This document shows, piece by piece, positions 619-29,009 of a stretch of DNA of 64,000 nt. The stretch covers positions 1-64,000 of the forward strand of contig JAUCBJ010004675.1 of the NCBI GenBank assembly GCA_032718475.1, read 5' to 3'. Below the pieces are notes generated by a model. The model was not told where the DNA came from. It worked only from the letters and a program-made list of their open reading frames with translations, and made no database searches. This DNA is from Nemertoderma westbladi. Its lineage: Eukaryota; Animalia; Xenacoelomorpha. The position numbers were made by a program, and so were the translations under genes. Positions within the stretch are counted from its first letter, which is position 1; each line of letters opens with the position of its first letter.

Positions 619-895
619 AGTAGTATAGAAAAGGACTAAATGAGAACACCAACTACCCCAGGTTAAAATTGACTCCTTATAATGCACGTGGAGCTACTTC
701 AATATATATTAAGCAAATAATAGGTTCTCACACGCTGATCAAAGGTCATTGTAGATAAAAAAAAAACTGTGAATGTATGAGTAGGCTTTGGTTTGGAAAC
801 TAAGGTATTGAAACCTCCGAGGTATTGAAAGTTAATTAAAGTAATTTTTATAATGACTTGCATTCTATATAGTTTAATCTTGGGATCAAAGGTTA
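619..895 (+). repeat. Polinton left TIR
   Basis: Reverse complement of 11281-11661 (near-identical over ~648-876, diverged near the tip), plus an 11-bp match of 885-895 to 5014-5024. Confidence 0.85.
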
Positions 896-970
896 ATGTT
901 AGAAGTAAGATGTAATCTATAAATAATTGATTTATAAATAAATGGTTTAAAGAAATAAAATATATATAAA

Positions 971-3900
971 ATGGCAAGTTTATCAAATACACAAAATCAG
1001 TCAGGTAAACATTCAGTTGAATTGCACATGAGCAAGCAATTCAAAAACGTAACTTTTGAATATGAAATCATGGCATTTGAAAAACAATCTGTTGATACAT
1101 TCTTTGAATCAATAAGAGACAAAGTTTCGATTGAAATGAGACGAATGTTAACAAAATCATCAATCAAAATGCAAATTGTTATGGGAATAACATTTATACA
1201 TCCTATAAATGGAGACATTGAATTGTATTACAATAGACACGATCCAGAATTAATACTTTCAGAAAACAACATTGATCAGGCAATAGAGTCTAAAAAAACT
1301 AAAACAACTACATGGGTTCAAGAAATGGAAGGTGGAGGGTCAGGGTTGATATTTAAAGAAATCACTGAAGCAAAATTAAAATTATCTGTTTTTAAAAATA
1401 TGGGTGGGTCTAGTTTTATAAAACTACCTTTTAGATCAACCTATATTGTCAATGTGAAAAATGATGATGAAAAATGTTTCCTATGGAGCATATTAGCACA
1501 CATCCAACCCCAATCAAATAATAGATGTCGAGTTACTAAGTATAAACCATTTGAAAATATCCTAAATATGAAAGGTATAGATTACCCAGTCTCTTTAAAG
1601 TCAATTAACAAATTTGAAAAACAAAACAATTATGCTATTAATGTATTTTGTATTGAAGATAAGAAAGCTCTTCTTCCCCTTCGTATTAGTAATTTCAGAG
1701 ATAGAGAGCAGATAGACTTGTTGTTTCTCACCATCTGTAAGAAACAACATTATACTTTGATTACAAAATTTTCATCATTTTTAAACGGCTTCAATCTAAA
1801 AAACACATCGCTTACTAATTCCTTGTTTTACTGTCGGAATTGTCTGAGAGGTTTCTTTGAAACAGAAGGTCTACAAAAGCATGAAGAATTATGTTATGGG
1901 AATAAATCAGCAAAAATCATCATGCCTATTAAAAACAAAAATAATATTCTAAAATTTCAAAAGTATTGGTATAAGTCAAAGCTACCTTTTGTTATTGTTG
2001 CAGACTTTGAAAGCATAAATGTACCAATGAACCAGAATGATGTATTATGCAAACAAATTCCTTATTCATTTGGACTTTACATAAAGTCAGAATACCAAGA
2101 GATTCTAAAGGATATATACATCACATATAGTGGACCAGATGTTGTTGAGAAATTCTTAGACAAGATTCTCTATTATAATAATTTTATAGGTTCAATATTT
2201 ACACAGTATACAGAATATCCTAAACCCTATAATTTAACAGTAGAAGAAAAGTCCAACTATCAAAATGAACTCAGATGTCATTTTTGTAAACAATCGTTTG
2301 ATGTTAAGATTTGCCAGGGGGAAAAATGTAATTGCGATAAAGTTGTTGACCACTGCCACTATTCTGGAAAGTATCGAGGTGCAGCACATAGATGTTGTAA
2401 TTTACATGAAGGTTGGGTTACAAAGTTCATTCCTGTCTATTTTCACAATTTATCAGGTTACGACTCTCATCTGTTTGTAAAAGAATTGGCACTTAAACAA
2501 ACAGAGAAGCAGCATTTAAAAATTCTCCCTAAAACAAATGAAGAATATATTTCTTTCCAATTTGATAATTTACGATTTTTAGATACCTACAGATTCTTCC
2601 GGAAATCATTAGCAGATGTTGTGGAATCGATGCAGGAATCAGATTTAAACATTACAAGAAGACATTTTTCAGATGATAAACAATTCTCTTTGATGAAAAA
2701 GAAAGGTATATATCCATATGAATATTTTACATCATTGGAACAATTTAAAGAGACAAAACTACCTCCTAAAGAAAAATTTTATTCAAAGTTACGAAATAAT
2801 GATATTTCAAAAAAGGAATATTTACATGCTGAATATGTTTGGAATACTTTCAATTGCAAAACCTTGCAAGAATACCATGACCTATACCTCAAAGCAGATG
2901 TGTTGCTATTAGCTGATTGCTTTGAAAAGTTTAGAAATTTCTTTCTTGAACATCATGAAATTGACCCTTGTCACTGTTACTCAACTCCAGGTTTGACTTG
3001 GCAATGTGGTTTAAAATATACTGGAATACAATTGGAATTGCTTACTGATTATGATATGTTACTAATGTTTGAAAAAGGGATCAGAGGTGGTTTTTCTGGA
3101 GTTTTAGGTGAGAGAATTATAAAAGCAAACAATAAGTATTTGTCACACTTTGATAAAAATAACCCTTCAAATTTTCTACTCTATTTGGATGCAAATAATC
3201 TATATGGGTGGGCGATGAGTCAACAGCTTCCAATAAGGGATTTCAAGTGGGAAGATCCAAATACTTTTAACTATGACAAACCATACATTATGGAATGTGA
3301 CCTTGACTATTCAGATACAAATCTCAAATTCAAAACTAGAAACCTCCCCTTAGCTCCAGAAAAAAGACTGATTGAAAACTGTGAACTGAGTGATTATCAG
3401 ACAAACCTCCTTGAGGTTAATGATGAAAAATTAGGAAATATACCAAAGCTAATTCTTGATGTTAATAATAAATACAAATATGTTATTCATCACAGACTAT
3501 TAGAATTTTATAAATCCATGGGACTGAGAGTTTCAAAAATTCATAGAGTAATCTCATTCATTGAAGAAGCTTGGTTGAAACCATATATTGATTTTAACAC
3601 ACACCAAAGGACATTGGCTAAGGCTAATTTTGAAATAGATTTTGATGAATAATAGCTTTTATGGGAAAACTGTAGAAAATATCCGTGATAGGGTAAATGT
3701 AGAAATTGTAAATTTAGAGAAAAGAGGGTTGAAAATTCAAAGTCATCCATTATATAAAGGTATAACTATATTAAATATGGATCTTGCCATTTATCAAAAA
3801 CATATCAAGGAAGTTTGTTTTGATAAGCCCCTATATCTTGGAATGTGTATTTTGGATTTGTCAAAGCTATTAATGTATGAATACTATTACAATGTTATTA

Positions 3901-4508
3901 ATAAAAGATGGCCAATGAATCAAGTACTATATCAAGATACTGATGCTCTCTTTCTAAATATATATACTGATGATGTTTATAAAGATATGGAAGATATCAA
4001 ATATACATTGGATACTTCAGGATATCCACTAGATCATTCACTTTATAGTACTGAATATAAAAAGGTGGTCGGTAAATTCAAAGATGAGCTAAGTGGTAAA
4101 ATAATAGCAGATGCATGCTTTATAAGGTCAAAACAGTATTCATTCAGAACAGAAGAAATGACAGTGGAAGTAGTTAGAAAGCTTCAGAATATTGTGAAAG
4201 ATTTTGTTTGTGATAATTATAATTCCATTCACTCAAGCAAACCTAAAATCAATACAACTAAACGATTGAAGGGGATTACTAAATCAGTCGTTGAGAAACA
4301 AATAATCTATGAGGATTATGAAAATATATTGAAAGGTAAAAATAATAATATTTTTCGAGAGGTAACATTGTTGGGAAGTAAAAATCATGAAATATATCTA
4401 CAATCTTTAAAAAAGAAGGCATTCAGTGCTTTTGATGATAAAAGATTTATTGATTTTAATGGTATCACTACATATCCACATGGACTCGAAAAATCATATT
4501 TCATATAA
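971..4508 (+). pseudogene. polB: Protein-primed family B DNA polymerase (pPolB) with endonuclease VII-like Zn domain, frameshifted
   Basis: ExoI ADFES, DHCHYSGKYRGAAH (endo VII-like), ExoII HNLSGYD, motif A YLDANNLYG, motif C YQDTD. A small deletion at ~3640 removes the expected FKL before MNNSFYGK and splits the gene into ORFs 971-3652 and 3642-4508. Confidence 0.93.
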
Positions 4509-4513
4509 TTAAA

Positions 4514-4939
4514 ATGAATATAGCTGACTTCTTAAACAGATTTGGGAAAAACTCAACAACCTACTTTCAGTTAATCAAGTATGCAAAAGAACTAAAAATA
4601 CCAAATTTCTATATATGTATGCGAGATGAAATTAATGATTTACCAACAAGCCAAACACCCTTAAATGTAATCACAAATATTCATACCTTAGATGAAAGGG
4701 GTATTCATTGGAGTGCTTTTCATTTAAATCATAACAATGTGTGTTACTATTTTGATTCCTATGGTCTACCTCCATTAATAGAAATTATTGATATATTCCC
4801 AAGCAAAACAGAAAAGATTCGAAATACTTTTAGTGTTCAAAATTTTAATGAATCACATTGTGGTCAGTTGTCATTATATGTTTTGTATAAACTAAACCTT
4901 GAGGGTGATTTCATAGATTTAATTCTAAATTTAACGTGA
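4514..4939 (+). CDS. Adenain-like cysteine protease (Polinton PRO)
   Basis: GIHW, YFDSYG and QNFNESHCG give an intact H-D-Q-C catalytic set. Starts 5 nt after the polB stop. Confidence 0.9.
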   Translation: MNIADFLNRFGKNSTTYFQLIKYAKELKIPNFYICMRDEINDLPTSQTPLNVITNIHTLDERGIHWSAFHLNHNNVCYYFDSYGLPPLIEIIDIFPSKTEKIRNTFSVQNFNESHCGQLSLYVLYKLNLEGDFIDLILNLT

Positions 4940-5348
4940 GATATATCAATCATTTCTCATCATACCTATTTTTTTTTTAAATATTTACCAGTCGTGAGAG
5001 ATGTTATCTAAAGTAACCTTTGATTTATTATATTTACCAGACTGACAAAAAATGTCAAACTACAGTAAAATTTCAACTACTTTTTTACACCGATTTATCA
5101 CAAATTATTATAATTTTCATCAAATTTTTCGCTTAAAAATGGATGGATTCCATTTTCCTGAAAGTTGTTCACATGTTCTGACTCTACTGTATATATGAGC
5201 ACAATATGGTTGTAAGTTCATACATATATAATGTAGTAGAGTTGCACCAATCCAAATGTTCTGTCCAATATATTTATTGTCTTGCTGTAACTAAGATTAG
5301 GTAAAAAAATTGATTTAGTTAAGAAATCAAAACTAATAGAAAACTTGT

Positions 5349-7901
5349 ATGGCTACTACTATATGTGAAAACATCAATAAACCAACTAGTATGGATACTA
5401 CCCAGTTCGTGACATTTGAACAGATGGGATTGAGAGCACCGAAGTCAGCATGCATGCATCTACTGTTAGAGAATGCCTATGAGTCTAATCTTTTGACTGA
5501 TATATCAAAAGTAGATTACCTAGCAGGCAATGGAGGTAATATGTTGCTTCAAGATGTGCCTGAATTGGAAATGTTTGTTGACGATCTTTATGTGTATGGG
5601 TATCTTCGAGAAGATCAAGTTGTGAGAACCAAAAGTTCTGTCATGTTGACAACTGGAAGGTTTGGGTCTGCCTCTTATATTGTGGAGAAGTTGAGGAGGG
5701 AGGCAACACAAACAATCGGAAAGAACTGTGATGACTTTATACACACAAAAATATTAGCCTCTGTACCGCTACATTCTCATGGAGTGATAATGCAAACAGT
5801 GCATAAAATTGAAGGAGAGATGAAGGATAAATATATAAAAAACTGGAAAAATCTGGAACAAAAAGAACCTATTGCTGTCTTTGTTGGAAAGTTGTATGTA
5901 TCTGTAATCAACCTAGATGATCTGCAGGAGCACTTGGCTGAATTTGGTAGAGTACTGCAGTCATATGGATGGGGAGTATACTCTGTTGACTACACAAAGG
6001 ACTTTGCTGGAACCCTCGATAGGAAGGCAATAGTCAAACATCTAGTGGAAACAAGAGGTTGGAGGTTGGAAGGGACATTTCAAGCAGCATTGGAGGCTGA
6101 TTAGCCCACAATTTTGGAAAACACTTCATCTGTGGGAAATCATGTGTTGACATACATCACATCTTGGGGCGGAAATACAATGAGAGTGAAGCTGTACAAC
6201 AAAATTGTTTGCCAGTTTGAAGCAGGAGAAGTATTGGAGAATTTTGGAGGGCATTTGGCAGACTACGCTGATTGCAGGAACCCTGTTCTTCGGAAATCCT
6301 TAGAACATCCATTGATCCAGCAATATGGATGTACAAGAGTTGAGATATCCTTGTACTCTATGAATTATATATCTAGAGATCTTGGTGTGGCAGTAATGAG
6401 AAGTGCATTAGAAAACATACAGCCATATCACGGATTATTTGTGCAGCAAAGTGGGAGGAATCACTGGCTAGCTCTAGCAAAAGAGGTGACAAGGTGTTGT
6501 GTCATTGCCTCTAAGACCACAGGAACAATCTATGTAGCTTGGTATGCTCACACAAGAACTGGGAAAGTTTCTGGAGTGAAAGTGCAGTGTAAGTTTGATA
6601 TACAAGAAAATAGACAAAGATGGGAGAAGGCTATATTGTGGAGTTGTTCAGAATTTGGATTTCGAGGTTGTCCTATATTTTGCTTCCAAATTAGAAATCA
6701 AAATGAAATTGAAAATGGCACGGAAATAGCTCCTCTGAAATGCTATTTCAAAGACCCCACTGCAAAAACAATAATTTGCTCATCGAAACTACCAACACAG
6801 TGTAGGTCAGTTCAAGCAAGAATTCCGTTGGAAGAAATGTTGCCACCAACAGATTTCATAGAGTGGACATGGAGGCAAGAGCCTTGCAAATCATTGGGAA
6901 CAGCAAAAATGCAATGGAAACTACTAGAGGTGCCTGAATACTTGCAAACACATCAGGTATCTTGGTTGTCAACGTGGAAAAGAGCGCAGAGGAACATTGA
7001 TATTCTAGATTATTTAGAATGTGAAAAATGGAGACAAGATGCACTGCAAAGAAGTGCAAGAAATCGAGAAGAAGTAGCTTTGATACACAAAAGGTTGCTG
7101 GAGTTCAAGAAAAGAAAACGACATGAAAATGAACAAAAGGAATATGTTTTGCATCTATTGAAGCATACTCCCATACAAAAAATTTGTGAGTTGGATGGTA
7201 AGAAACCATTAAAAGTAACAGTGCTTGGATTTCGACAAGCAACTGGACCATACCAAAGATACGAAATTTTGCTTTCGATTAGTTGTGAAATTTCCAAGAT
7301 ATATTCTAACCGAGGCTTGGAGTGTGTTTTAGATGAATTGAGAGATGCTTTTCACAGAGCACAAGAACCAAAAACAAAAGACATTTATTTTTTGGTTGAT
7401 GGAGTGCTGGAAATTGAAATTCAAGCTCCCAAAGAGTTCAATAATGAGCAGCAGCAGATAATTATTTGGTATCCAATTAAATTATTGAGAAGCCCAATTG
7501 AAGGCGAACAACAAAATATACAAGATAGATTGAAGAAAGTCGAAAATGAATATGAGAAGGCCAAGTCCCTGTGTTTGGTTGAATATCCTGCAAAAGAAAA
7601 GAGGAGTGTGAGAAAAGTGCTTCAATTGGAAGAAGGTGAATATCAATGTATAGCATATTGGAACCAAAACTATAGGGGAAAATTGCGTCACATATTATAC
7701 TTGCAGAATAAAGCTGGTGAATCTGCGAGACCAGTATATGGCTATTTCTTGCAGAGAGAGGTTTTGCAGATGCAGTGTGATTTGTCCACAGTATTATCTC
7801 CATTGCTAGTGAAAGTTGGAAGAACAAAGACAACACCACAGAAGAACAAGGATAGAATCATAACTTTAGCCCACACTCTGCTTAGCACAACAACCATGTA
7901 G
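5349..7901 (+). pseudogene. ~850-codon protein with Rep_trans/CRI-like initiator motifs, one in-frame TAG
   Basis: ORFs 5349-6104 and 6114-7901 are in the same frame, split only by TAG 6102-6104. Ordered motifs SVDYTKD, GNHVLTY, RVKLYNK, TRVEISL. The family assignment is inferred from motif order only. Confidence 0.55.
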
Positions 7902-8679
7902 GAGTAGCACAACATTGATAATAATTGTATACTAAACTTATGTACATGACTGAAACTGAGGAGTCCATTTTGCCTATTCAACAAAAGTTGTGCATACTGC
8001 ATACATATGCAACAGACACTGTCTGATGAACAAAGCAATATAGTCCGATTAAAGAAATGCATGCAGTCTGATGCAAGAGATATTGTCTCATACAATAAAT
8101 TCGGACACTTTTAGAGGATTTCATGCAGCATCCATTTGTCCTGGATTTTAACCAATTTTGACTAACAAAAATTGTATTTTGCAAAATTAGGCTAAATCTT
8201 TTGCCATAACACAACATCTTAGCAGGTTAAATATTTGGGCAACTATGCATTTACATAGATGCATACTTACCCGCACTGCAGTCAAGTATACTTACCCACA
8301 CTTTTTCCTGTAAGTTGTCAAAATGAAGTCTAAATGCATACTTACCTGCAATTTAGCAGCCCCGGAGCTCATGAACTCATCAACTATCGGTAACTAAATA
8401 ATGACAGTAATTTCGTGGTATACCTGATAATGTGATTGTCCAGTGCAAGCATGATATGGTGTCAATGGTGATAACAACATGAAGGAACTCGGGCCTAAGG
8501 TTCCCCCTTTGTATTTATACATACTTGATAGTCATTTCCCTCTGGCCCTTTTTGAATAAATTTGGATTTGTAAATAATTTGTTCCAAAAGTCAAATGTGG
8601 AAAATGCACCAATGTATGGGAGTATTACTGTATCTCACAACACTTCTCAATGTTTCCCTAAAGTTTCCCAAGGTGTCTC

Positions 8680-9113
8680 AATGTTGCACAAATGACCTTT
8701 TCGGCGTTGTTTTTGGTGTCATATTCTGTGATATCCGATCCTGAAGCCCAAATGTCCTTTTCCGAGTCGTTTTGGGCTTCAGGGCCTCGGAAGCCGAGAT
8801 CCTGAAGCCCAAATGTCCTTTTCCGAGTCGTTTTGGGCTTCACACTCTGTGATATCTGAGATCCTGAACCCCCTGAAGCCCAAATGTCCTTTTCCGAGTC
8901 GTTATGGGCTTCACACTCTGTGATATCTGAGATCCTGAAGTCCAAATGTCCATTTCCAGGTCGTTTTGGGCTTCAGGGTCTCGGAAGCTGAGATCCTGAA
9001 GCCCAAATGTCCTTTTCCGAGTCGTTTTGGGCTTCACACTCTGTGATATCTGAGATCCTGAACCCCCTGAAGCCCAAATGTCCATTTCTATTCGTTTTGG
9101 GCTTCACACTCTG
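8680..9113. repeat. Minisatellite of 61/62/71-bp hairpin-containing units
   Basis: TGAAGCCCAAA-N18-TTTGGGCTTCA units start at 8742, 8803, 8874, 8936, 8997 and 9068, plus a degenerate unit upstream. Confidence 0.9.
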
Positions 9114-9738
9114 TAGGTAATTTGTTGGTTTGCGCACAAACTAATCCAATTTTCGTTGTTTGTTGTTGTTTGAGTTGTTGTTTTATTTTAGAACGAAGAC
9201 AATTCGTTCTGAATGCGATGAATTGCAGTTTATTTTTAGCTAGGCCTACTAAAATACTAACATCATCGCCATTCGGCGGCATCAGCCAAAACTGGCCAAC
9301 ATTTTGGAGGTGATTCACTTCAGGTTTACAATCCCTAACTGCATCGAGGTCTCAAGAATGGGGTGTGGGGTGGGCCCATGGCGATTGCCATGGGTGGGTC
9401 CAATGGCATAATGTCTCGAAGGGCAAGGAGAACCAAAGTATACAAGGTAACAGCAATTTACAAACCAAACTAAGGTAATGCATGTTGCAAACCTACTCTA
9501 AATGCAGCATCTCCATGCCTTTCTGCAAAGACACCAAACTTGCATCAGGTGGACCACTTTTGATGGAAGACAAATCACTATAACAATAATGCAATTAAGA
9601 AGTGTGTTCTTTGCAGAAATGTGTGAAGCCAGGTCACATAACATCATATTTGATAAGAGATTTTATCTAATTTTGATAAAAGAAATTCACAATAATGTTG
9701 GCATAGTAGGTACTCATACTGTACCAAGACCTGAGACA

Positions 9739-10719
9739 TCAGTGTGTTTCTTCCATAAATCCAAACAGTTCTTTGAGGACCCGCACCACTTTGGGCATCA
9801 CAACAGAAGGGTGAATCCTTTTTGGATGGTGATTACGATTCACAGGAAAAAACTCAGTGATGCCTGATACATGGGATATTTCTCCCATGAAGCCACACAG
9901 CTTTGCAGCCTTATAGATGCCGCTAAATTCCCACTCTCCGATAAACTCTCCACGTGCTTTTCCTGTTTCATAGTCCTCTAACGTTATACGGTGTCCCTTA
10001 CTGTATATCGGAGCTTGCACCAGGTAACCATTTTCGTCCGAAAAGGCACAAACTATTTCCGAAGGAAATCCACATTCAGCAACATGCGTTTTATTTTCCA
10101 CTTGATCTATCATCGCCACTCCTTGGTTCGTTCCTCCAACTGTAATTGTCGCAGGTGGCAATCCCCGGGCGCAAGCTGTACCTGTTTTCAGCAGCAGTTG
10201 CGCTTGTGGTGCCACTTCCAAGATGGAGAGTGTGGCCGCGTATGAACACAATGGTCCTGTTGATTTTGGACATAACATAATTTTTGGAACTGCGCTCATG
10301 GGCAAAAATCCAACCATGGCAATACGGGTGGCATTAGTGGGGTGCAGAAGGTCCTGAATATTTGTTTCATGCTCTAAAAGCTTATTTAAGTAACGAAACT
10401 CCTTTGTATAGTGCCCTGTGATAATAATAACATTCGCCTTTTTTACCAGTTCTAATTTTGTTATAAATCGAAGCCCTTTGAACACTTTTATAGGACTCCT
10501 GTAACTACCTCCGCGAAGTGTTGTTTCCGGTTTTTCAGTGAACTTCCAACCCAATTCTAATCCAATGGTGCGAACACTTTGCACGATGCTTAGTCGTGTT
10601 GATGTTGTTGCATTCTGGACCTCGAATCTGTCCAGAATTTATGTATTTGTTATTTCTTTTGATTCGTCGGGTCTTATGAATCTCTTCAAAAAGACATTAA
10701 CTGTTGATGATGACTCCAT
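9739..10719 (-). pseudogene. Nucleoside phosphorylase/MTA-nucleosidase fold (PNP_UDP_1-like) protein
   Basis: VIIITGHYTKE, STGPLCSYAAT...LLLKTGTACA, GEWEFSGIYKAA (EME-like) and VSGITE (GISD-like) occur in canonical order. In-frame ATG at 10719, with one TAA at 10641-10639 upstream of the listed 281-aa ORF. Confidence 0.65.
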
Positions 10720-10790
10720 TTACATATATGTGCAGTCGCAATTGCCAGAGGAATCTCAGTACGCAGATGACCTGGACTTTATTAGTACAG

Positions 10791-10933
10791 ATGATGCCAT
10801 GCATTATATATATGATGCCATGCATTATATATATGATGCCATGCATTATATATTTGATGCCATGCATTATATATATGATGCCATGCATTATATATATGAT
10901 GCCATGCATTATATATATGATGCCATGCATTAT
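10791..10933. repeat. 21-bp tandem repeat (ATGATGCCATGCATTATATAT), ~7 copies
   Basis: Directly visible; it accounts for the DAMHYIY-repeat ORFs. Confidence 0.95.
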
Positions 10934-11280
10934 AATTTATCAAGTTGCCTACAGTACAATGCCATTAGCTAGTAAAATGCTGGTATGTTAAAATGTTACA
11001 TGATATAAATACAATGAACTAGTTGAACTTGGTTTCTGATTTCTAGAAAACGTTTTTAATGTGATGGAAACAATAATAGCTTCAGTTGGTAATCCAAAGC
11101 AGCAGACCCTAATCTTAAGTGTCATAATAACCCTAACATTAGTTGTTTTTTGAGAATTTTGCGAAATTTGCTTAGTGCATCGGCCAAAGCCAAACCGAAG
11201 GCCAAATCCCGAGAACTTGACTAATTGTCAAAGAGTAGTTGAATTTTTACTGTAGTTTGAAATTTTTTGTCAGTCTGGTA

Positions 11281-11661
11281 AACTATATAGAATGCAAGTC
11301 ATTATAAAAAAAAATTACTTTAATTAACTTTCAATACCTCGGAGGTTTCAATACCTTAGTTTCCAAACCAAAGCCTACTCATACATTCTCATTATTGTTT
11401 CTGATATCATTTTACTACACATTCCTGAGTCCGACTGTGGTCGGACTCAGAAATGCAATTCAGATTTAACCTTTGTAATCAGAATTGGATAAGATCTGCA
11501 AATCTCATTTTTTTTTTTTTTTTATTTACAATGACCTTTGATCAGCGTGTGAGAACCTATTATTTGCTTAATATATATTGAAGTAGCTCCACGTGCATTA
11601 TAAGGAGTAAATTGTAACCTGGGGTAGTTGGTGGCCGCATTGATCCCTTTTTTATACTACT
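11281..11661 (-). repeat. Polinton right TIR
   Basis: Reverse complement of 619-876, with an extra ~120 bp (about 11389-11507) absent from the left arm. Confidence 0.85.
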
Positions 11662-12298
11662 GTGGGCCTTGATTGGTTAATGGGTAATAAGGGGTTGTAG
11701 CGCAGTGGAGATACCTACCTAATATAGCTGAACAGGAGTGTATAGGATAAACGGCTGTGAATGGGGGCAGCCACTAATGGTCGAATGAGTATATTGGAGA
11801 TGAGATAGATATTGGTTTGCAACAATAAGCTGGGAGAATGGGCGGTAATGTAATGATAATATATTTTTTATTGTTTGAGAGAGACCCGCCACTACAGTCC
11901 CCCTTAAAAATTTTCAAATTTTTACACGATATCTGGGCTTCCTCAAAACATCTTAAAAATTTCAAATAATCGAAGGAACATCTTGTCCCACTCAAATAAT
12001 ATTAATCTATGGCCTTTATATTTTACCTCGGTGGACGAACTGGACATACAAAACAACGATTACACACAGGACATACATTTAAAAGTATGGAGTTGCCATA
12101 CGAGTGAAACAGACGTACAGAAGACAACACATGTAACACATAGAGGACAAACATTTAAAAGTATGGATATACCATACAAAGGAGATAAGAAGCTCCTTGG
12201 TATCTAAAGGGTCATTGAAGGTCAAAGATTAACATTATTAATACAATACTTAAGGAAGGTAATATGTTCAGTAATGTATTTGTCGAAGTTAAGATACG

Positions 12299-13188: not shown

Positions 13189-14016
13189 ATGCAGCAATAT
13201 AAATCGCAAAATAATAATTATAACTATATATTAACATGTATTGATGCCTTCAGCCGGCTTGCTTTTGCTTATGGTATGAAAACAAAAACAGGTATTGAAA
13301 TTATTAGTATATTGCAAAAAATATTCCAAAAGGGTAAACCAAACAGAATCGCCACGGATCAAGGGTCTGAGTTTCTAAATAAATCTGTAAGGAAATATTT
13401 AGATACGTTAGGTATACAGTATTACGTAATGTACTCTGTGAATAAGGCGGCTATTGTTGAGAGATTCAATCGCACATTAAAAACAAAGATGTTCAAAATT
13501 TTCACGCAACGGGGAAATAATGTTTGGATAAAAATTTTACCAAAGCTCATTTATGCTTATAATAGGTCAGTTCATAGGACTATACAAATGATGCCCATTG
13601 AAGTTAATAAATTTAATGAAACTGAATTAATGAATAGATTATATGGGAAATATAGACAGATAAATCACAAGAAAATAAAATTTAAAGTTGGGGATACAGT
13701 ACGATTATCTATCGCTCGTACTGCTTTTGCTAAAGGCTATCGAGAACAATGGACACGAGAATTATTTATTATTCATCGGGTTAGATTGGATAGAGTACCA
13801 GTGGTAATGTTCGATATTAAGGACAGCGCTGGAGCTATAATAAATGGCTCATTTTATTCTCACGAACTCCAAAAGGTCCACCCGAATAGTAATATTTATC
13901 TTCCGATTGACAAAAATATTGACAAACTTAAAGAACGTGTACGCAATGGGAAGAAAGAATATTTAGTCCGATTCATTGGATCCAAGAAACAGTCGTGGGT
14001 ACAGCATATTCAATAA
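13189..14016 (+). pseudogene. Polinton rve integrase with chromo-like C-terminus, N-terminally truncated
   Basis: YILTCIDAFSR, TDQGSEF, VERFNRTLK, FKVGDTVR, EYLVRFIG...SWV. The first catalytic Asp (WQADL motif) is missing at the junction with the BEL remnant. Confidence 0.9.
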
Positions 14017-14261
14017 GCTTAGGTTTATACTGTATATTAATTCATTTTGGTCGCATATGACCATAATTAATCAATAATATTAACTCGAATGATATTACTA
14101 TATCTATAGTTGATCCGCTTTAAATAAAGTCAGTAAAATATTGATCCCTCGCATATATTGTAGATGCGACAATGAACGTGGTCACAGATGTCTATAATTT
14201 AACATTATACTGTATGTACAAAGAAGTCAAGTAGAGAGAGCGAGCTTAAATAATAATAATA

Positions 14262-15134
14262 ATGGCCACAGATACATATATCACTCTACTTTCAGATAGC
14301 TCATTAAACACTTATCCCAATAATAATCCTAGCGACTTTACTGTTGATTTAGCCGAAGAATTATATATTGGTCCAAACGCTAAAATTGGGCTTGCCGAGC
14401 TACAATACCAAGCAACATACAGTAATATTACACTGCAAACTCAAATCTCGCTGTCAATCGTGGTAGATGCAAAAGATGCCAAATTATATAGTTTATTTCC
14501 TGGTATGCATAGCTCTATTCAAGTGATTATTGATGATATAAATAAACTGTTTAATTCTGAAGCGAAATATAGAGATTTCGAATTCATTTTTAATACAAAT
14601 AATTCTAGAATTAAATTTAAATTTCCTAAAAAGTTGAAAAAAATACAATTAAGTCTACGCGGTGATTTAATACAAATTCTAGGCTTAAAAGCGTTATTGG
14701 ATCAGAATCATCCAGGTATTCCGAATTGGGATATATACAGTACCACTAAAGTAGATGAATTCAGCAATATAGAACAACCGATATTAATTTTAAATTATAG
14801 CGGACCAAAAATTTCAGAAATTGGGATTTTAGATTTTCCTGATCCCACGAATATAACACGCAATAAAGATACAATCTTCATATATACTGATATTATTAAG
14901 ACCTCATTTGTTGGTGATGCTTTAGCTCCGCTCTTAAGAACCTGTCCATTAACACAATTAAATCGAAAATATATTAATCACGAATACGAGAGCATTTGCT
15001 ACTACCCATTGTTGAATAAAAAACTAAAAACAATATTAATTACTTTACGTGACGGGCAAGGCGAATTAATTAATTTTAGCGGAGGTAGCACTATTATAAC
15101 ACTTAAGTTAATACGTGGTGGCAGTGATGGATGA
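14262..15134 (+). CDS. Polinton minor capsid (penton) protein 1
   Basis: N-terminal YITLLSDSS..YPNN.PSDF.V.L and C-terminal FIYTDII...VGD...PLLR...YYPL...I.ITLRD..G..INF.GG signatures. Confidence 0.8.
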   Translation: MATDTYITLLSDSSLNTYPNNNPSDFTVDLAEELYIGPNAKIGLAELQYQATYSNITLQTQISLSIVVDAKDAKLYSLFPGMHSSIQVIIDDINKLFNSEAKYRDFEFIFNTNNSRIKFKFPKKLKKIQLSLRGDLIQILGLKALLDQNHPGIPNWDIYSTTKVDEFSNIEQPILILNYSGPKISEIGILDFPDPTNITRNKDTIFIYTDIIKTSFVGDALAPLLRTCPLTQLNRKYINHEYESICYYPLLNKKLKTILITLRDGQGELINFSGGSTIITLKLIRGGSDG

Positions 15135-15965
15135 GTTCTATGTCAGACTACAGAGTAATTCCTGTCCAATTGATTTTCCCCGCAATAGTGCTAGTAATTA
15201 TCAAATTAATTTCCATGGCGCCTTACCTATAAACCCAAACGAAAACTGGGTGGTAGGTATAAAAAGTATATTTTACTTAGCTACGTTGCCGTCAATGTAT
15301 AACAATGTAGAGAATGTTATTTTATTAAAAAAGGGGAAAAAAAATTTTGTGGATACACTTCCATCCGGTTTGTTCTACAGTATCAATGACATTATAGATT
15401 ATTTTAACACGGGGGCGTTGAAAGATAAATTACAAATAGTTGAAAATACTCAGCAAAATAGGTTGCAATTTATTTTAGGGAAAGCAGTGCGAGAGTTATT
15501 TATAGGTCAACAATTAGCCTATTATTTTGGATTTACTGAAAATAATCTCGGTGCGAATTTAAATCCAAATTTTAAAATTATTTTGAAGATGAAAAATAAC
15601 ATAAAGGGTTATTTAATAAAGATTATCGGAAATGGAGAAAAAGCTTACCAGATAGTATTTTTATGCCCTCAACCACCCAATTCTATTCCAGAACCTAAGT
15701 CGAACATGTATGTGACTACTAATATAATTGAAAATCAATATATTAATGACTTTGGTTTAGCTTTACTTCGTCGTGTCGCGATACCTGATGACGTGAAATA
15801 TGGTAGTGTAATAAATAAAGAATTTGCAATTCACTGGATACAATTCATTATATCCCTGTAAAAAAATCATATAAGATAACATACATTCATATTGAAATAA
15901 CAGACGAAGAAGGAAAATATTTAAATTTTGAATACGGGACAACATCTATTACATTACACTTAAAT
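15127..15965 (+). pseudogene. Polinton minor capsid (penton) paralog 2, frameshifted
   Basis: MDEFYVRLQSNS...FPRNSASNY...WVVGI. After a frameshift at ~15830 (CAATTCA duplication) it continues HYIPV...IEITDEEGKYLNFEYG..SITLHFK. Confidence 0.72.
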
Positions 15966-16026
15966 TACATTACATTATTACATTAATATTGATATTTACA
16001 TTGATATTACATTACACTAAATTAAA

Positions 16027-16587
16027 ATGGATTCTGATTTATTTCAAAGATACAGTAAACCTCAATATGGTGGGGCAGACTCTAATCTTGCTGTTTTTAA
16101 AGGCGGTAGAAGTACGAGAGGTTCGACGCAAGTTCCTGTTTTTCGAGGTGGTTCATATATTGACCCTTACGGTCAACAAATTGGTGCATTTGGTCCAAAC
16201 TTAAAACAACGTCGTTTTCAACGTTATCCTAGAGGTATGCGGGCAAATCAACACGGAGAAGGTATATTTACAGACGCTTTATCCACATTGAAAAAATTTG
16301 GTAAGCCATTAGCCAAAAAAGTGTTACAAAAAGCTTTACCATTTACCACAAAATTTATGAGACAACACGTAATACCAAAAGGTAAGCGGGTCTTACATCA
16401 GCAGGCTAATACGGTTATTAATAAAGCATTAAATAAAATGAAACCGTCAACAAGGTCAGTTGTAGAAAAAGTTTATAGAGATTTAAAGCGACCCGCTAGA
16501 CCAATGTCTATGAACATACATCATCGACGTAGTAAAAAAAGAAATATAAAAGGCAAACTGAAACACTGCGAAAAAAGTATTTTTTAA
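16027..16587 (+). CDS. Basic pX/pVII-like core protein with GG-type protease sites
   Basis: QYGG, FKGG, FRGG and QHGEGIF followed by an amphipathic helix; K/R-rich; lies between penton and MCP. Confidence 0.65.
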   Translation: MDSDLFQRYSKPQYGGADSNLAVFKGGRSTRGSTQVPVFRGGSYIDPYGQQIGAFGPNLKQRRFQRYPRGMRANQHGEGIFTDALSTLKKFGKPLAKKVLQKALPFTTKFMRQHVIPKGKRVLHQQANTVINKALNKMKPSTRSVVEKVYRDLKRPARPMSMNIHHRRSKKRNIKGKLKHCEKSIF

Positions 16588-16589
16588 TA

Positions 16590-16680
16590 ATGTCAATTAT
16601 TAAGGAATTAGATTTATTTTCTACACAGCCAATACAGACTGAATTTAAAGCAAAGCATTATGAAACAATTTATCCTCCAC
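16590..16680 (+). pseudogene. N-terminal stub of a Polinton major capsid protein
   Basis: ATG 16590 gives MSIIKELDLFSTQPIQTEFKAKHYETIYP, matching the ELDLF..P.QT.......HP start of Maverick MCPs. Similarity ends abruptly. Confidence 0.65.
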
Positions 16681-18344
16681 TTGAAGGTTATGACTTAGAG
16701 TTATTTTATCCATGGTGCAGGCCGCATTGACAGCGCAATGGTAGTTAATCCCGGGAATCCTGTTGTGCGGTCCATAGTGGTTGCAAAATTTAGACATATC
16801 ATTTAAGTATAGACGGTGTACTGCTCCCTTTAAATAGGTGGTTTCATCTGGTATTTGGTAATCCACTACTCTACAGAAGTAGGCCAACTCAAACAGCAAG
16901 TCGAAAACGTCGAATTTAGACAAGTTTTCTATACGCTTATTGATGGTTAAAGATTGTATTTTCTGACTAGCCAGAGTCGTACCGCCTGTTCTCACTAGGC
17001 GATAGGAGACGATATTTTCAATATTTCTAGGGCGGTAATTCCCAGTAATAATCTCTTCTTTCCCTTTGGTATTGTATAAAGTAATCTTAAATCCAGAGCC
17101 GACATGCAAATGAGGGACGCTAATGTCCAATTCAGGCACTATATATAGTAATGTGTTCGTTCCCGTGGGATAATCGAGAAGACACACCAAAAAGTGTTTT
17201 GATAGTTGATAATTCTACTTAATCTCCTAGTTCACTACTTACAAAACTTCGTAAAGATTTCCCTTGAATCGTATCATTTGTTATTAATTTAAACAATTTG
17301 GATTTGCGTTCGTGTTCTACGGCCTCAAACGCTATATGATAGTTGCGCTTTAACTTATTGATGGCCATTGGCTTTACTGAGATACAGTCTTGTCTAACAT
17401 CGAAGTTAATATCGAAGGATCTAGACGCAAAAAGATAACTGACATCAAACATGCCATCTACCATTTTCTTGGAGGTCAGGATACTTTTGGATCTAGCGGT
17501 GATGAGCTGCCGGACTTTCTCTGCAGCCACAGTGCTGTCGAGGAAACCGAATTGGGAAAGGATATCCTTTGCCTGTTCAAAGGCGACGACCCCATCCTTG
17601 GTGGTTATTGGCGGAGCAGTTTCCGGCCAAGCTATCTGCCACAGGAGAGCGTCTGTGTCCGCAATAGGAACATCCAGGTTAACTTCTCTGATTATCCGGG
17701 CCTTACAGGGGCTTTGGGTGTGTTTGGTCACAGTATATTTGAAATTTAAGACATTTTTCACGGTTTTGAGCTCGAAGTGTAACACCTTCTTGACGACTTA
17801 TTTATCCGCAGGTTGGCCATGGAAGGCCCACCAGTCCGCAACAGCAAATGGTGCTCTTTGTGTATCCTCACTGTAGGGGTTTCCCCATGACACCTTCTCT
17901 TCCGGCGTTGCGTTTATGGGGCATTTGAATTCGATACCATTCCATGTGGAAGGGATATGATCCAAATTGGCAACCTTGGCCGATATAGGCCTTTTTCGGG
18001 ACATTTTGGACATCAACTCGAGACCTGGTTGGGTAGAAGTCTTCACTGAACCAACAGAGTTTATTAGTCTGATCTCGTCGAGCTTGATGTTATATAGGGA
18101 GGGATCCTCCCTATACGCACTCAGTACGTGTTGCAATCCCTTTAACCGGGAAGAGTTAACAGTTGTCATTATTAAACCTCTTGCTATTGCTATTGTTGGA
18201 TACAAACCGAGCTTTAGCAACTGTCGGAGACAGGCCAATATTATGACTGTGACATAAACATTCCCTCCCTGTTGATAAATCTAAGGAGATAGTCTGTGTG
18301 GGAAGAACCCACAACTCAAATGTCTTGAATGTGGTCGCGTTCAC
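16645..18344 (-). pseudogene. Disrupted unknown gene(s), probably Polinton accessory
   Basis: Collinear ORFs of 62, 146, 188 and 181 aa. The 146- and 188-aa ORFs are in frame across one TAA (17798-17800). No recognisable motif. Confidence 0.45.
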
Positions 18345-22526: not shown

Positions 22527-24179
22527 AGCTACCCCATAGATGCCGTTTAGGTTATAGAAGGCACACCACTGATACTACCAATCTCCTTTATGGATGGTGG
22601 CACAGTTTCCAAGGGACCGATCATTATCTCTATTGTACGAGGAGATAGGGGATCCATTGAGGTAGACACTCTCACCAGGACTCCCAAAAAGTATTAAGTC
22701 AAAAGCCGTACTGTTTAATCCAGTGAAACCACCAAGAGGTACTCTCTATAGCCGAGTGGGGGCACTTTTAATTAATGTAACCCCAAAATGAAAAAATATC
22801 ATAACCCTCTATCAAATAAAATAAAATAAAATTTATTATAAGGTAGGTGAGTACAATTTATGGTGCGAATTGGTGCTTATATTTGTGTGAGTATGTGGGT
22901 TTGGCCCCTTTTTATAAAGTAACATTATATACATGAAAGCTTTCACTAGAACCGTTAAGGTTCACGAGTCAGCAAGTTTCACTTAAATACTTGGAATTTA
23001 ATTTGGGTGGGGAGGAGGGGGGGGGGGGGTTCGATGAATATTTTATTGGTGGTTTATGCTTAGTTCTCGAGATAACCTTCTACTCACTCCTCAAAAATCC
23101 TGAAACCAGTTCAGCTAGGTGTGTTGGATTGGCTGTGTTAGCACGGCCGGGTTGATTTGAGTACTCCTACAGACATTACCCTCCCTGTCAGTGTGTGGTC
23201 CATACATCCGGTAAGCAACCGAGGGTGCACTCTCTAAAGCCGAGTGGGGGCAATTTATAATAATAACTGGTAATCACAAACCCCGTCCTCTTATAAGTAA
23301 GTAGTTAAATGAGCGAATTTGGTTTGGTTTTCTTAATCTATCATAATTTAGGAGTAAATGAGATGGTTTTAGACCCAATTGATAAAGTAACATTATTATT
23401 CATTATTAGCGTGATATAAGATTTATTAGAGTGATATAAGATTTTGAGTGAAATACATAATTTGTAATTATCTTCTGATTTAGTTGAGTCAAATGTACCT
23501 TAGTAAGTTATTATAAGTCCTATTCAAAATTCATAATTGATTAAATTTATACAAGTTGCAATATGGCCCTCGCAAAATTATCTTCGAAATTACAAACTTT
23601 TAGAATAAAAATCTCCGAAATATTGTTCTTCAATAAAATAATATGCCATCTACAATTTTTCAAAAAATTTAAGCAAACTAATTTTTTACAGTTTTTTTAG
23701 GTGACATACATATATAATATGTATGTCCAAACTTCCCCAAAAAATGAGTTTGAATATAATATTATGGACCTGATACTAACTTTTAGCTGCGAAACAAATT
23801 TTTTATAACATTCAATGATGGTTTTATTTTGCGACTTTTTATATTTGAGTAATGTAACTTACATACACAGGTATTGAATAGTGACCGAATGAGCACATTT
23901 ACCGTATTGTAAGCAAATTAATTAATTTTTTTAGGTTTTCTTGGTGTGGCCATATGGTTGATATTAGAATCAACTACATCAAGCTATATTATTTTATTTA
24001 ATTATACTCATTTTATAATTATAATTGGCAGTATTATTATTATTTACGCAGAAACCGCATCTGAAAATTGTAGCCTTTTACATACTGCTTTACTAGTGTC
24101 TGGAATACAGTCAAAAATCGAATTTATTCGGTACATACTAAAACATAAAACAACCTGAAACAAGATAAACAACATGAAC

Positions 24180-26086
24180 CATATACGCCTATAGGATCTA
24201 AGTTCGCCTATAGGATCTAAGATCGCATATAAGATCGAAGTTCGCCTATAGGTTCTAAGTTCGCCTATAGGATCTAAGTTCGCGTATAGGATCTAAGATC
24301 GCATATAGGATCTAAGTTCGCCTATAGGTTCTAAGTTCGCCTATAGGATCTAAGTTCGCGTATAGGATCTAAGATCGCATATAGGATCTAAGTTCGCCTT
24401 TAGGATCTAACTTCGCCTATATGATCTAAGTTCGCCTATAGGATCTAAGTTCGCCTATAGGATCTAAACAGAGTCTAGGATCTAAGTTAGCCTATATAGG
24501 ATCTAAGTTCGAGTCTACGATCTAAGATCGCGTCTAGGATCAAAGTTCGCCTCTAGGATCTAAGTTCGCCTTTAGGATCTAAGTTCGCCTATAGGATCTA
24601 AGTTCGAATATAGGATCTAAGTTCGCATATAGGATCTAGGTTCGCGTTTTGTATCTAAGATCGCACATAGAATCTAAGTTTGCGTATATGATCTAAGTTC
24701 GCCTATAGGATCTAAGTTTGCCTAGGATCTAAGTTCAAATATATGATCTAAGTTTGCATACGATCTTAGTTCGCGTATAGAATCTAAGTTCGCTTCTAGG
24801 ATCTTAGTTCGCGTCTAGGATCTAAGTTCGCATATAGGATCTAAGATCGCATATAGGATCTAAGTTCACCTATAGGATCTAAGTTCGCCTCTAGGATCTA
24901 AGTTCGCGTCTAGGATCTAAGTTCGCGTCTAGGATCTAAGTTCGCGTCTAGTATCTAAGTTTGCGTCTAGGATCTATGTTCGCGTCTAGGATCTAAGTTC
25001 GCATATAGGATCTAAGTTTGCAGTTTGCATCTAGGATCTAAGTTCGCATATAGGATCTAAGTTCGCGTCTAGGATTGAAGTTCGCGTCTAGGATCTAAGT
25101 TCGCATATAAGATCTAAGTTCGCGCCTAGGATCTAAGTTTGCCTATAGGATCTAAGTTGGCATATAGGATCTAAGTTTGCGTCTAGGATCTAAGTTCGCA
25201 TATAGGATCTAAGTTCGCGTCTAGGATCTAAGTTCGCATCTAGGATCTAAGTTCGCCTATAGGATCTAAGTTGGCATATAGGATCTAAGTTTGCATCTAG
25301 GATCTAAGTTCGCATATAGAATCTAAGTTCGCGTCTAGGATCTAAGTTCGCGTCTAGGATCTAAGTTCGCCTATAGGATCTAAGTTGGCATATAGGATCT
25401 AAGTTTGCATCTAGGATCTAAGTTCGCATATAGGATCTAAGTTCGCGTCTAGGATCTAAGTTCGCGTCTAGGATCTAAGTTTGCATATAGGATCTAAGTT
25501 CGCGCCTAGGATCAAAGTTTGCCTATAGGATCTAAGTTCGCATATAGGATCTAAGTTCGCGTCTAGGATCTAAGTTCGCGTATAGGATCTAAGTTCGCTT
25601 ATAGGATCTACGTTTGCGTCTAGGATCTAAGTTCGCATATAGGATCTAAGTTCGCGTCTAGGATCTAAGTTCGCGTCTAGGATCTAAGTTCGCGTATAGG
25701 ATCTAAGTTCGCTTATAGGATCTAAGTTTGCGCCTAGGATCTAAGTTCGCATATAGGATCTAAGTTCGCGTCTAGGATCTAAGTTCGCGTCTAGGATCTA
25801 AGTTCGCCTATAGGATCTAAGTTCGCCTGTAGGATCTAAGTTCAAATATATGATCTAAGTTCACATATAGGATCTAAGTTCGCGTATAGGATCTAAGTTC
25901 GCATATAGGATCAAAGTTCGCGTCTAGGATCTAAGTTCGCGTCCAGGATCTAAGTTCGCGTCTAGGATCTAAGTTCGCATATAGGATCTAAGTTCGCCTA
26001 TAGGATCTAATTTCGCCTATAGGATCTAAGTTCGAAAATAGGATCTAAGATCGCCTATAGGATCTAAGTTCGTGTATAGGATCTAA
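24180..26086. repeat. 19-bp satellite (TAGGATCTAAGTTCGCSTM), ~100 copies
   Basis: Directly visible head-to-tail array with CCTA/CATA/CGTC/CGTA variants. Confidence 0.97.
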
Positions 26087-27281
26087 ATTATCAAAAAAGA
26101 AAGACAGGCATCTGGCTGTTATCTTTGTTGACTTCTTCAAGGCCTTTGATTCAGTCTCACGCTCACGTATGTTCAGCATCCTTTCATTATATGGGATTCC
26201 TGATGAAATTATTGCAGCAATCAGATCAGTATACGATGGTTCGACAACATTTGTGTCAACTGTTGACGGTGACACAGAACCATTTGAAGTGTTATGGGGC
26301 GTCCTCCAAGGAGACACACTTGCACCATTCTTGTTCATTATTGTGGTTGACTATGTTCTACGCATGTCCTTAGATCATCATAATGATGATGGGGTGATGA
26401 TAACTTCACCTACTGGCTCCAGAAGTCGAGGAAATCCTGCCAAGTACCTAACTGATCTAGACTTTGCTGATGACTTAGGAGTACTCTCAGAATCATTAGA
26501 GGGAGCCCAACGGCTCCTCAGCTCATTAGAACATGCTGCTTCTAGTGTTGGTCTTTTTATTAACTCCAGAAAGACCAAAATTCTGACAGTTAACTTTGAA
26601 AGTCCTCAGCAAGTCTCTGATCGGATGAGCATAAGCTCAAAGGATGGTATGCTTGAGCATGTGGACGACTTCTGTTACCTGGGATCATGGATCCGGAAGT
26701 CAGGTGAGGACCTTCGAATACGTAAGGGAAAGGCATGGGCAGCCTTGAATAGGCTTTCCAGGATTTGGAAGTCACCAAGAATTAATCGGAAACTTAAGGT
26801 CCGATTATTTAGAGCAGCAGTAGTTCCAGTACTCCTCTACGGGAGTCCATGCTGGGCTCTAACTGCTGAGGACACCAAATCTCTGGATGGCACATTCACA
26901 AGAATGCTACGCTGGGTTCATTGTGTCAAGTACAATGCACACATCTCCAACCAGACACTATATAACATTGGAGGTGTCTCATTGGTTCCCCCAAGCTTGA
27001 CACTAGAACAAAATCGCCTCCGCTTTGCAGGACATTGCTTTCGCCGTGAGGACCAGCCAGTGCATAATCTTGTACTTTGGCAGCCTCATGGAGTGAATAA
27101 GCATGGTGGACAGCCCATGACTTTCTTGAGATGCATCTTAAAGGACACTGGCCTTAAAGATGTGGATGATCTAGCAAATGTCATGGGTGATAGGGAGTTG
27201 TGGCGGTGCAATTTTGTTGACAAGCCGGCACAGCATTCTTAAAAATGCAGCTGCAATGCAGCATGCCGATCCTAGTAGTAG
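26087..27281 (+). mobile_element. Second RTE copy (3' RT portion)
   Basis: FVDFFKAFDSV, GVLQGDTLAPFLF, FADD. Near-identical to 21557-22526 and has the same TAG tail. Confidence 0.92.
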
Positions 27282-28860
27282 AGCCTCATCTTCCGGTTCC
27301 TTCAGTATTATCTCGTTGTTCCAGGTTGTCCTTATGGGGATGTGTTTCCTAATGGCATTTGGTTCGAGCTTTATTGATTCCGCTTGTATGTTAGAGAAAA
27401 TCAAATCGATTGCGCTGCTTCCATTGTGACATATATATGTTGGTTCTTTGTTATTTTGTAGGCCTAAATCGAAGTCATCCATCAGTAACTGCAGAGCAGT
27501 TGCTTTTGGTTGGTCCTCTAGATCGATACGCGCATTGAAGTCTCCCCCGACTATTATTGGACCGTCGTAACTAACGGGAATATCGTCCAGCATAAACAGC
27601 ACTCCCTCAATGAGATCCTCCAGGGCTGTTGACGGGTTGAAGTAGCTACATGTAATGATACCAAAGTCTGTCGAGACTACAACATAATTATTGTCCTTAT
27701 TGAGATAAAACATGGGTTTAACCGTGGTTTTACAGCAATGGAAATCCCCCCTGAAGGCTGACCCCTAGGTCCTTTTGTAGCCGGACTTTCAAAAATGTAA
27801 AACCCTGGAATTTCAATCGGATCGGTTGCCATGGTTTCGGTTAGCATTATAATATCACACTGGAATATTGGATCCATATGAGATTGATTCATAATTGTTT
27901 CCAGTCCTTCAACATTCCATAGTACAACTGAAACCCTTCCCCTGTCGGTCTATGTAGCCTCTATAGTCGTTTTGGTCTGCTTGCTATGTCAGTTCCTGCG
28001 AACCGAGAGTCTCGGGCGGAGTCCAAACTGCGCGCGTTCCTCGTTACTTAATTTGTAATTCTTGATTATTATTCCCTCTTCCCAGATATCAGGATTCATT
28101 AGTGAGCTTCGCAAGTCCTGTGTGCAAACTAGATGAAACGATTTAGTCGTTGAATCTGGTTGAACGGTTAGAGGTATAACTGAATCGATTGCGATGCCCT
28201 CGGTATCCAGGTATTCTATGAGCTGATCCTTTGTGACTGTTTTGTCTAGGCGCCCGATGTACACATGGGTTTTCATCTGAGCAGGCGTTGTACCGGTATC
28301 GGGTTGGGATGCGGATTGGGCAGTCTGGAGGGTTCTGCCGGCCTTCCGTCCACGGCGTACTACGGAAAAGTTCTCGGTGAGACCTCCTGTGTCAATCTGG
28401 GTTGGTCGGTCAGGTGTCTGTTGCGGAGGGTGAATGGCCAAAGAGAATCGGTTTTGGCGGGAGATGTGAATCGGTTGTCGTGGGACGATAGGCGGTTCAT
28501 TTAACGGGGTTCTTGCAACGTTGTTGTAAGCTCGAGCGGGGTTTAGCCTGATGAGATCGTTTTTTGCCTGGATTGTTTCTCGCCTAGCTTCTGCTAGCTC
28601 TGTGCTTTTTTCCGCTAAATTCCCTAGCATTGTTACAAACAGCGAGTTCATTCTTACCAATCGGTCCGTAAAATGTCTTTCCTCCTCGTTTGTAACACTC
28701 TTCTTTTGTTTGAATTTTCTGACCAGTTGCATGAGCTCGTTCTGGATGTCCGCGAATTCGGTTGCTGACGCCATTTCTTTAATTACATTTATATAATACT
28801 GTTAAGTTTATTGATATTTATTTATAATAATAAGAACAGCACAGAGGCACGCAGTAGAGT
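27282..28860 (-). mobile_element. 5' part of a two-ORF LINE (ORF1 with coiled coil + RRM; ORF2 APE, frameshifted)
   Basis: ORF1 28774-27989 ends VYIGRL...SFHL...PDIWEEGIII. ORF2 has WNVEG, LTET, SGG, GGDFNARI, SAIDLIFSN. Truncated by the RTE 3' end. Confidence 0.8.
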
Positions 28861-29009
28861 AGTGGTAGTTTCCAGCAGTCAGGCAGTGCGATAAAAACTG
28901 TATAGCTACAGCAGTACAGCCCGACAGCTGTAGGCTGATATAGCCTAGGCCTAAAGTTATATCATTCTACCCATCATCAATTAAGCTCAGATTGAAGTTG
29001 AAGCTTCTT

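Follow-up and report, generated by a model that had tools for sequence, protein, structure and literature searches.

Enzymes of the Rep_trans type (PF02486) comprise RepC and RepD of the pT181 family, RepSTK1 and Phage_CRI of inoviruses, together with the MOBT relaxases and the archaeal Rep-Arvir. According to the parts of the cited sources available to us, to which all statements citing them are limited, these enzymes are apparently restricted to bacteria, with a newly found archaeal family added in 2026 (PMC13107129), and the fold has been assigned only to bacterial and archaeal viruses (PMC13595969). Here we describe a 6.2-kb unit at positions 5037-11278 of a 64,000-nucleotide stretch of DNA from the xenacoelomorph Nemertoderma westbladi (assembly GCA_032718475.1, contig JAUCBJ010004675.1, positions 1 to 64,000 of the forward strand; this whole stretch is called the window), in which two convergent genes lie inside 53-bp inverted ends. 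The unit is a real multi-copy mobile element, now broken in both genes, and judged by sequence comparison its gene 1 is a broken copy of a large undescribed family. We observed directly the ends of the unit, several of its insertion sites, the gene family and a set of conserved putative catalytic residues; it is the gene family, more than the exact two-gene unit, that we regard as the lasting finding.

With the Rep_trans enzymes gene 1 shares a predicted TBP-like fold, a tyrosine placed on a predicted strand in a YxK motif and an RxE motif, and it has three acidic residues in the order of their metal positions. It differs from them in its length of 850 residues with a middle domain, a coiled coil and two OB folds, in its animal-type genomic context, and in lacking the arginine of motif I, the tyrosine and glycine of motif II and a match to the hidden Markov model (HMM). 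Helitrons have OB-fold partners, and Helitrons and IS91 resemble the unit in the tyrosine-linked single-strand chemistry that we propose for it, in cargo capture and in a fixed junction seen in relatives. Non-autonomous 'pack' elements of the CMC/EnSpm or Tc1/mariner type are also similar in having terminal inverted repeats (TIRs), an apparent TA duplication, captured genes and no transposase inside, but what this unit mainly carries is a putative nuclease, conserved across a large mobile family. Transpovirons and other virus satellites are small DNA elements too, each associated with a bigger virus-like helper (a helper being a proposal in our case), but the unit has a different replication protein and chromosomal insertions with precise ends. 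Helitrons and IS91 use HUH enzymes of an unrelated fold (PMC13107129, PMC5714925), whereas the unit has symmetric TIRs and no helicase. Replitrons, which are described from plants, algae and protists and combine an HUH Rep with short direct terminal repeats, are similarly eukaryotic and Rep-driven without a fused helicase and were similarly first found without a Pfam match; the unit differs from their HUH fold and direct repeats in its predicted TBP fold and 53-bp inverted ends (PMC10288648). No published report of a eukaryotic Rep_trans element was found in the open literature, with subscription journals, supplements, Repbase and Dfam outside the scope of the search, and an unclassified repeat-database entry with the gene-1 protein could exist.

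Ends, copies and insertion sites of the unit

The unit is inserted in the right arm of a Polinton and contains the following features.

5037..5089, plus strand: left TIR, beginning CCAGACTG (arm comparison; copies with other flanks occur among the contigs)
11226..11278, minus strand: right TIR (arm comparison; joined to gene 2 on one contig of run X2)
5033..5036, no strand: left target flank TTTA, read either as a TA duplication or as one half of a blunt TTT^AAA site (flank reading)
11279..11282, no strand: right target flank TAAA (flank reading)
5349..7901, plus strand: gene 1, 850 codons, premature stop at codon 252 (6102-6104) (open reading frame (ORF) and translation)
9739..10719, minus strand: gene 2, 326 codons, premature stop at codon 27 (ORF and translation)
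8680..9114, no strand: hairpin units of 60-71 bp, arrayed between gene 1 and gene 2 (folding z = -10.7)
10786..10934, no strand: 21-bp tandem near-palindromic array upstream of gene 2 (repeat scan)

A first-pass annotation, made from the letters of the window, had reported TIRs of about 44-50 bp. These are real and extend to 53 bp, with the arms identical at 49/53 bases (46/50 over the first 50), and the pairing continues across the palindromic TTTA/TAAA flanks. The first 14 bases of the TIR match exactly at only two places in the window, which are the two ends, and with up to two mismatches there are three matches against 0.58 expected. The annotation had left open whether the flanks represent a TA duplication or a blunt TTT^AAA insertion, and they do fit both equally, the two being indistinguishable from the flanks. 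Its further claim that excision rejoins the Polinton TIR holds for the right side, where the flank from 11279 rightward is a near-perfect mirror of the left Polinton arm, and for TAACCTTTGAT (5014-5024), which mirrors 885-895, but not for the 8-9 bases immediately left of the insertion site, which have no mirror in the left arm. Eleven bases spanning the left junction are repeated at 4981-4991, 49 bp upstream in the Polinton, by chance or as a footprint. The genes had also been described as separated by hairpin arrays; they are indeed convergent with one array between them, but the 21-bp array lies upstream of gene 2, and an X2 contig running directly from 10776 to 10953 lacks it.

Three of the six sequencing runs listed, from two studies, contain the unit, one of them possibly being the source of the window itself, and no RNA data set was listed as containing it; in run X5 the unit is hardly covered, which says nothing on its absence. 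Ninety-one contig pieces were aligned on the left end, and start positions were read for 24 of these. Fourteen of the 24 begin at 5029-5037 (eight at 5034, reading TTA, two at 5035, reading TA, two at 5029-5030 and two at 5037), and several left-end contigs carry foreign flanks of 26 to 1,599 bases. On an X1 contig Polinton-arm position 901, ending in TTA, is joined to the TIR, which represents a second insertion in a Polinton arm. Contigs with gene 1 differ from the window by 4/353, 19/505, 46/459 or 51/503 bases (about 1%, 4% and 10%), so that there are several versions of gene 1; elsewhere, at a different site, a diverged left end reads through into the gene-1 leader. Nine of 18 gene-1 differences are synonymous (p about 0.015; 18 gene-1 rows among 40 of 479 differences), which gives a weak hint of selection. 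Some TIR copies switch to other sequence after 30-53 bases, where the alignment reveals up to 30 letters of the internal sequence of such copies. A joint of right end to left end was not present among the contigs listed, which lose rare forms and are thus uninformative on circles.

Gene 1 and its predicted nuclease domain

The domains of gene 1 were delimited as follows.

5556..6437, plus strand: predicted TBP-like Rep_trans catalytic domain, residues 70-363, with D78, D214, D218, Y283, K285, R330 and E332 (structure model, alignment)
about residues 365-540, plus strand: middle domain (structure model)
6972..7166, plus strand: predicted long helix or coiled coil, residues 542-606 (structure model)
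7197..7880, plus strand: two predicted OB folds, about residues 617-720 and 759-844 (structure comparison)

The structure model of gene 1 reached a mean predicted local distance difference test (pLDDT) score of 86. In this predicted model residues 70-363 resemble RepSTK1 (4cij; Z 6.3, 184 aligned residues, root-mean-square deviation 6.4) and RepDE (4cwe, Z 5.4; 4cwc, Z 4.9), and the C-terminal domains resemble the OB folds of eIF5A, PRD1 P12, SSB, HIN, LEF-3 and RPA70N (Z 3.5-5.1), all of these Z values being middling. The Atlas grouped residues 1-380 of the homologue P0007 with Rep_trans/Phage_CRI clusters (features 0.84-0.85; structure, by TM score on a predicted model, 0.36-0.42), which we treat as leads.

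Residue conservation was counted over 51 members of the family with 19-46% identity. The putative D-D-Y-E catalytic set of D78, D214, Y283 and E332 is kept at each position in 50/51 members, and all four residues lie on predicted strands, Y283 on strand 276-284; such strand placement of catalytic residues has been described for Rep_trans (PMC5714925). T216, D218, N284, K285 and R330 are kept in 51/51 and K281 in 49/51, so that motif III (YxK) is represented by Y283 (50/51) and K285 (51/51). In RepDE the metal is bound via D46, D142 and E214 and the nucleophile is Y191, with D146, K193 and R212 also conserved (PMC4797284), and the gene-1 residues follow in the same order as RepDE D46, D142, D146, R189, Y191, K193, R212 and E214. 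At sequence level the D-D-E positions of Rep_trans motifs N', I and IV match by order and conservation, and gene 1 reads LYNK and RVEI where the pT181 RepC frame has IYNK and RVEI. The Rep-like initiator of the first-pass annotation is supported by model, Atlas and residues, and can be sharpened to a predicted Rep_trans/TBP fold with two OB folds. Its statement that neither DDE nor HUH motifs are present also agrees with our data, since neither gene has a Pfam family at E <= 1, the Pfam scan found no DDE gene inside the unit and the near-invariant columns contain no conserved histidine pair. No helicase family was detected in gene 1 or 50 homologues beyond one AAA_7 match at E 0.13.

A word-seeded search returned 75 relatives of gene 1 among 6,770 candidates, mostly with about 40% identity, the sole named one being from Elysia crispata, and a profile search returned 1,172 clusters (50% identity) at E <= 0.001. 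Many clusters have several near-identical members, on contigs of up to 13 Mb. From the one name and the context we infer a host range of animal-type genomes. Viral contigs, phages and plasmids contained no relative of gene 1, and in viral contigs there was neither the TIR nor a relative of the pPolB-like flanks described below. Among prokaryote genomes one locus of 23 candidates was a relative, a 1.5-kb contig in a symbiont metagenome-assembled genome that is likely host DNA. Family and profile comparisons established no sequence-level link from gene 1 to known proteins. In a tree made by a quick method gene 1 (P0001) groups with P0003, the deeper branching being uncertain. P0214, P0216, P0220 and P0237 from JGI metagenomes form a deep clade of about 20% identity in which the catalytic set is retained.

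Related loci and possible explanations

We compared 41 related loci (of 150 candidates) in about 14 groups, with most contigs too short to include both ends. Neither the TIR nor gene 2 occurs in any of them (0/41 each), and in none are homologues of the two genes co-located within such termini; the two-gene TIR unit that the first-pass annotation had put forward as an entity is accordingly not conserved, which counts against part of its proposal. Nine loci (L007, L009-L016) have in common a left junction that is sharp, reads TTA and is preceded by five different flanks. Two of these flanks, seen in 5/9 loci, are separate points in a pPolB gene, and in L007, L009, L012 and L013 the N-terminus of pPolB and the Rep share one reading frame. 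Downstream these nine loci have shuffled modules with coiled-coil-like cargo ORFs and a shared right region, which terminates in a hairpin of about 110 bp except in L013, where it runs out in unrelated sequence. In another cluster, fragments of a pPolB-like gene, broken at two points, form the start of 3/15 listed members, and L025 adjoins a homologue of the same gene. In P0250 and L025:3881 two unrelated Rep families interrupt the pPolB-like gene at one shared position, directly behind its YDFE motif. Altogether, two among about 14 locus groups are flanked by Polinton pieces, as are one protein cluster and, twice, copies in this organism, and the association is suggestive. The earlier idea of a Polinton parasite gains from the second insertion in a Polinton arm and from the relatives joined to pPolB pieces, but has no genome-wide background to set these against.

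Hairpins of 126-170 bp lie upstream of the Rep gene at L001:620-785, L024:77-222 and L031:3921-4046, with long hairpins likewise in L002 and L030, and L003 has repeat-built inverted ends. The L031 hairpin ends in a Polinton-like way, AGTAGTATA. Two small partner ORFs recur across diverged families (L001:4225-4620, L003:3267-4393, L020:1809-2875, L038:385-741); the copies scanned gave no significant Pfam match, and by eye one has a predicted helix-turn-helix and hydrophobic segments. Twenty neighbouring ORFs scanned contained no transposase family apart from a weak Mu DNA-binding match (E 0.024). The sequence GTTGYCRAAA upstream of gene 1 was considered as a general origin and dropped, as it was present in 4/14 of the regions compared and is missing from the window. 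The literature gave no confirmation of the idea that the TTA target imitates a nick site of the Rep_trans type, PMC6499999 being silent on nick sites in the part available.

At a rough probability of 0.5 we consider the unit to be an element with a predicted Rep_trans-type tyrosine nuclease and two OB folds that mobilises itself in single-stranded form, in a manner resembling rolling-circle transposition, inserts at sites containing TTA and probably prefers Polinton DNA. The enzyme, acting as a dimer, would nick the element ends via Y283 and a D78-D214-E332 metal site, and the OB folds would hold the displaced strand, which the TIRs might fold into a panhandle so that the two ends meet. Joining of this strand into a T^A step would follow, and the apparent TA duplication would be a blunt insertion. 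Because the protein is without a helicase, the strand-displacing polymerase of Polintons is a plausible helper, and its single-stranded DNA might serve as target. More tentatively, and with the odds somewhat on the other side, the family might be a new class of eukaryotic transposon, the first whose transposase is a TBP-fold Rep_trans tyrosine nuclease equipped with an OB-fold single-strand binder of its own, common across animal genomes and parasitic on Polintons, which it would target and whose strand-displacing polymerase it would borrow.

A number of observations weigh against self-mobilisation by a Rep_trans-type enzyme. A TA duplication next to symmetric TIRs typically marks DDE cut-and-paste transposition. 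IS91 and Helitrons are described as having neither feature (PMC5714925). The TIR of the unit is not found in the 41 loci even in the closest relative, L005 (51%). TBP matches residues 70-363 as well as RepSTK1 does (Z 6.3-7.3, all under 8), and because of this tie the fold alone is no proof of the Rep_trans family; it is by the near-invariant residue set that a Rep can be told apart from TBP. Among the 51 members the arginine of motif I (RxD) is lacking, position 212 being S/C/Q/D/A/E, and motif II (T/SxYxG) is represented by T268 in 40/51 without the following tyrosine and glycine; PF02486 matches 0/51 among the families listed, the best E of any family being 0.0011, and hhalign of gene 1 against pT181 RepC failed (probability 0.9%). 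With these motif residues and matches missing, gene 1 is to be seen as a distinct family that, going by model and residues, likely works like a Rep_trans enzyme. The Polinton association consists of short flanks in two of about 14 locus groups without a background rate. Moreover, the gene adjoining P0250 and L025 aligns weakly to the pPolB of the window (E 0.013) and weakly matches Vsr (E 0.18), and its label as pPolB rests partly on motifs that we take to be diagnostic; a VSR-bearing pPolB2 has been reported in molluscs (10.1101/2023.08.22.554363).

The main rival is that the TIRs form the shell of a non-autonomous cut-and-paste element, moved in trans by a Tc1/mariner- or CMC-like DDE transposase, which captured gene 2 and, out of a separate family of rolling-circle elements, a Rep module, the Rep being a passenger or an amplifier of excised copies. 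The symmetric 53-bp TIRs and the TA/TTA target would be accounted for, as would the TIR copies that run into other internal sequence after 30-53 bases and the relatives, including L005, that are without the TIR and have other ends (hairpins, or the inverted ends of L003). However, at least two diverged copies have gene 1 joined to the left TIR, the 9/18 synonymous differences hint at selection on it, the TTA of the left junction is also found in a TIR-less family, and there is no DDE gene in the unit, and we regard such a shell as unlikely, if a serious contender. That the family is instead the replication protein of an unrecognised extrachromosomal replicon (a plasmid, a satellite or a small animal DNA virus), which would enter genomes by recombination or with Polinton help while the Rep itself integrates nothing, would agree with the recurrence of conserved small partner ORFs across diverged loci and with the several contigs of the L007 family that end in a long hairpin and have shuffled modules. 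All described Rep_trans proteins are, moreover, replicases and relaxases (PMC4797284, PMC5714925). Base-precise junctions at TTA, clusters of many near-identical members on megabase contigs and the lack of relatives in viral contigs, phages or plasmids speak against such a free replicon and make it improbable. Least of all do we expect that the gene-1 protein binds DNA through a TBP fold and has no nuclease activity, or that the unit consists of unrelated repeats nested by chance; the tie between TBP and Rep in the fold search and the missing HMM support would fit, but the whole D-D-Y-E set is among the residues that stay near-invariant where identity is down to about 20%, several sites carry the ends, and contigs tie these ends to both genes.

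Should the gene-1 enzyme be the mobiliser, it would represent a categorically new class, and otherwise still the first eukaryotic branch of the Rep_trans fold. If true, the fold would extend to a third domain of life (>1,000 clusters in animal-type genomes) and eukaryotic mobile DNA would gain a new chemistry, since the Rep-mobilised transposons described use HUH enzymes (PMC13107129). Polintons would gain a candidate satellite, and with it a handle on the question of whether they replicate extrachromosomally through single-stranded intermediates; a helicase-free single-strand integrase could furthermore serve as a tool. The claim is directly testable, as intact natural homologues exist.

Gene 2, the host Polinton and the rest of the window

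Gene 2 is absent from the related loci and is therefore likely lineage-specific, exchangeable cargo. The PNP fold assigned to it in the first-pass annotation is echoed by the Atlas, which places gene 2 with PNP_UDP_1 at 0.87 (10/10 best matches in one family or clan), a lead only. Family, PDB and homologue comparisons did not back it: there was no family match and no useful PDB match, no homologues were found at near or longer lengths (shorter proteins being outside the search), and the single-sequence model is unusable (pLDDT 33).

The host of the unit and its genes are as follows.

619..11661, plus strand: internally deleted Polinton (mini-Polinton) with AGTAGT ends (arm and end comparison)
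613-618 and 11662-11667, no strand: 6-bp target duplication GTGGGC of the host Polinton (flank comparison)
971-4508, within the host Polinton: pPolB, broken near 3650 (recognised by motifs only)
4514-4939, within the host Polinton: protease (Pfam E 0.0086)

Polintons are characterised by TIRs starting with AG, a 6-bp duplication, pPolB, protease, integrase and capsid genes. Integrase and capsid genes are absent from 619-11661, and the content of a broken pPolB and a protease only indicates a deleted Polinton derivative. A contig of run X5 joins both outer flanks and thus represents the empty site of the host Polinton. Within its right arm about 122 bases (11392-11513) have no counterpart in the left arm and contain a short GC-rich hairpin.

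A second Polinton-like cluster lies at 13189-16720 and encodes an integrase (rve, E 7e-11), two further ORFs and a basic ORF, together with what might by eye be the start of a capsid gene, cut off. The regions 24057-36400 and 46082-57164 hold large tandem arrays of 19, 77 and 99 bp, as well as several fragments of long interspersed nuclear elements (LINEs) and a long BEL/Pao-like long terminal repeat (LTR) coding region, labelled by eye.

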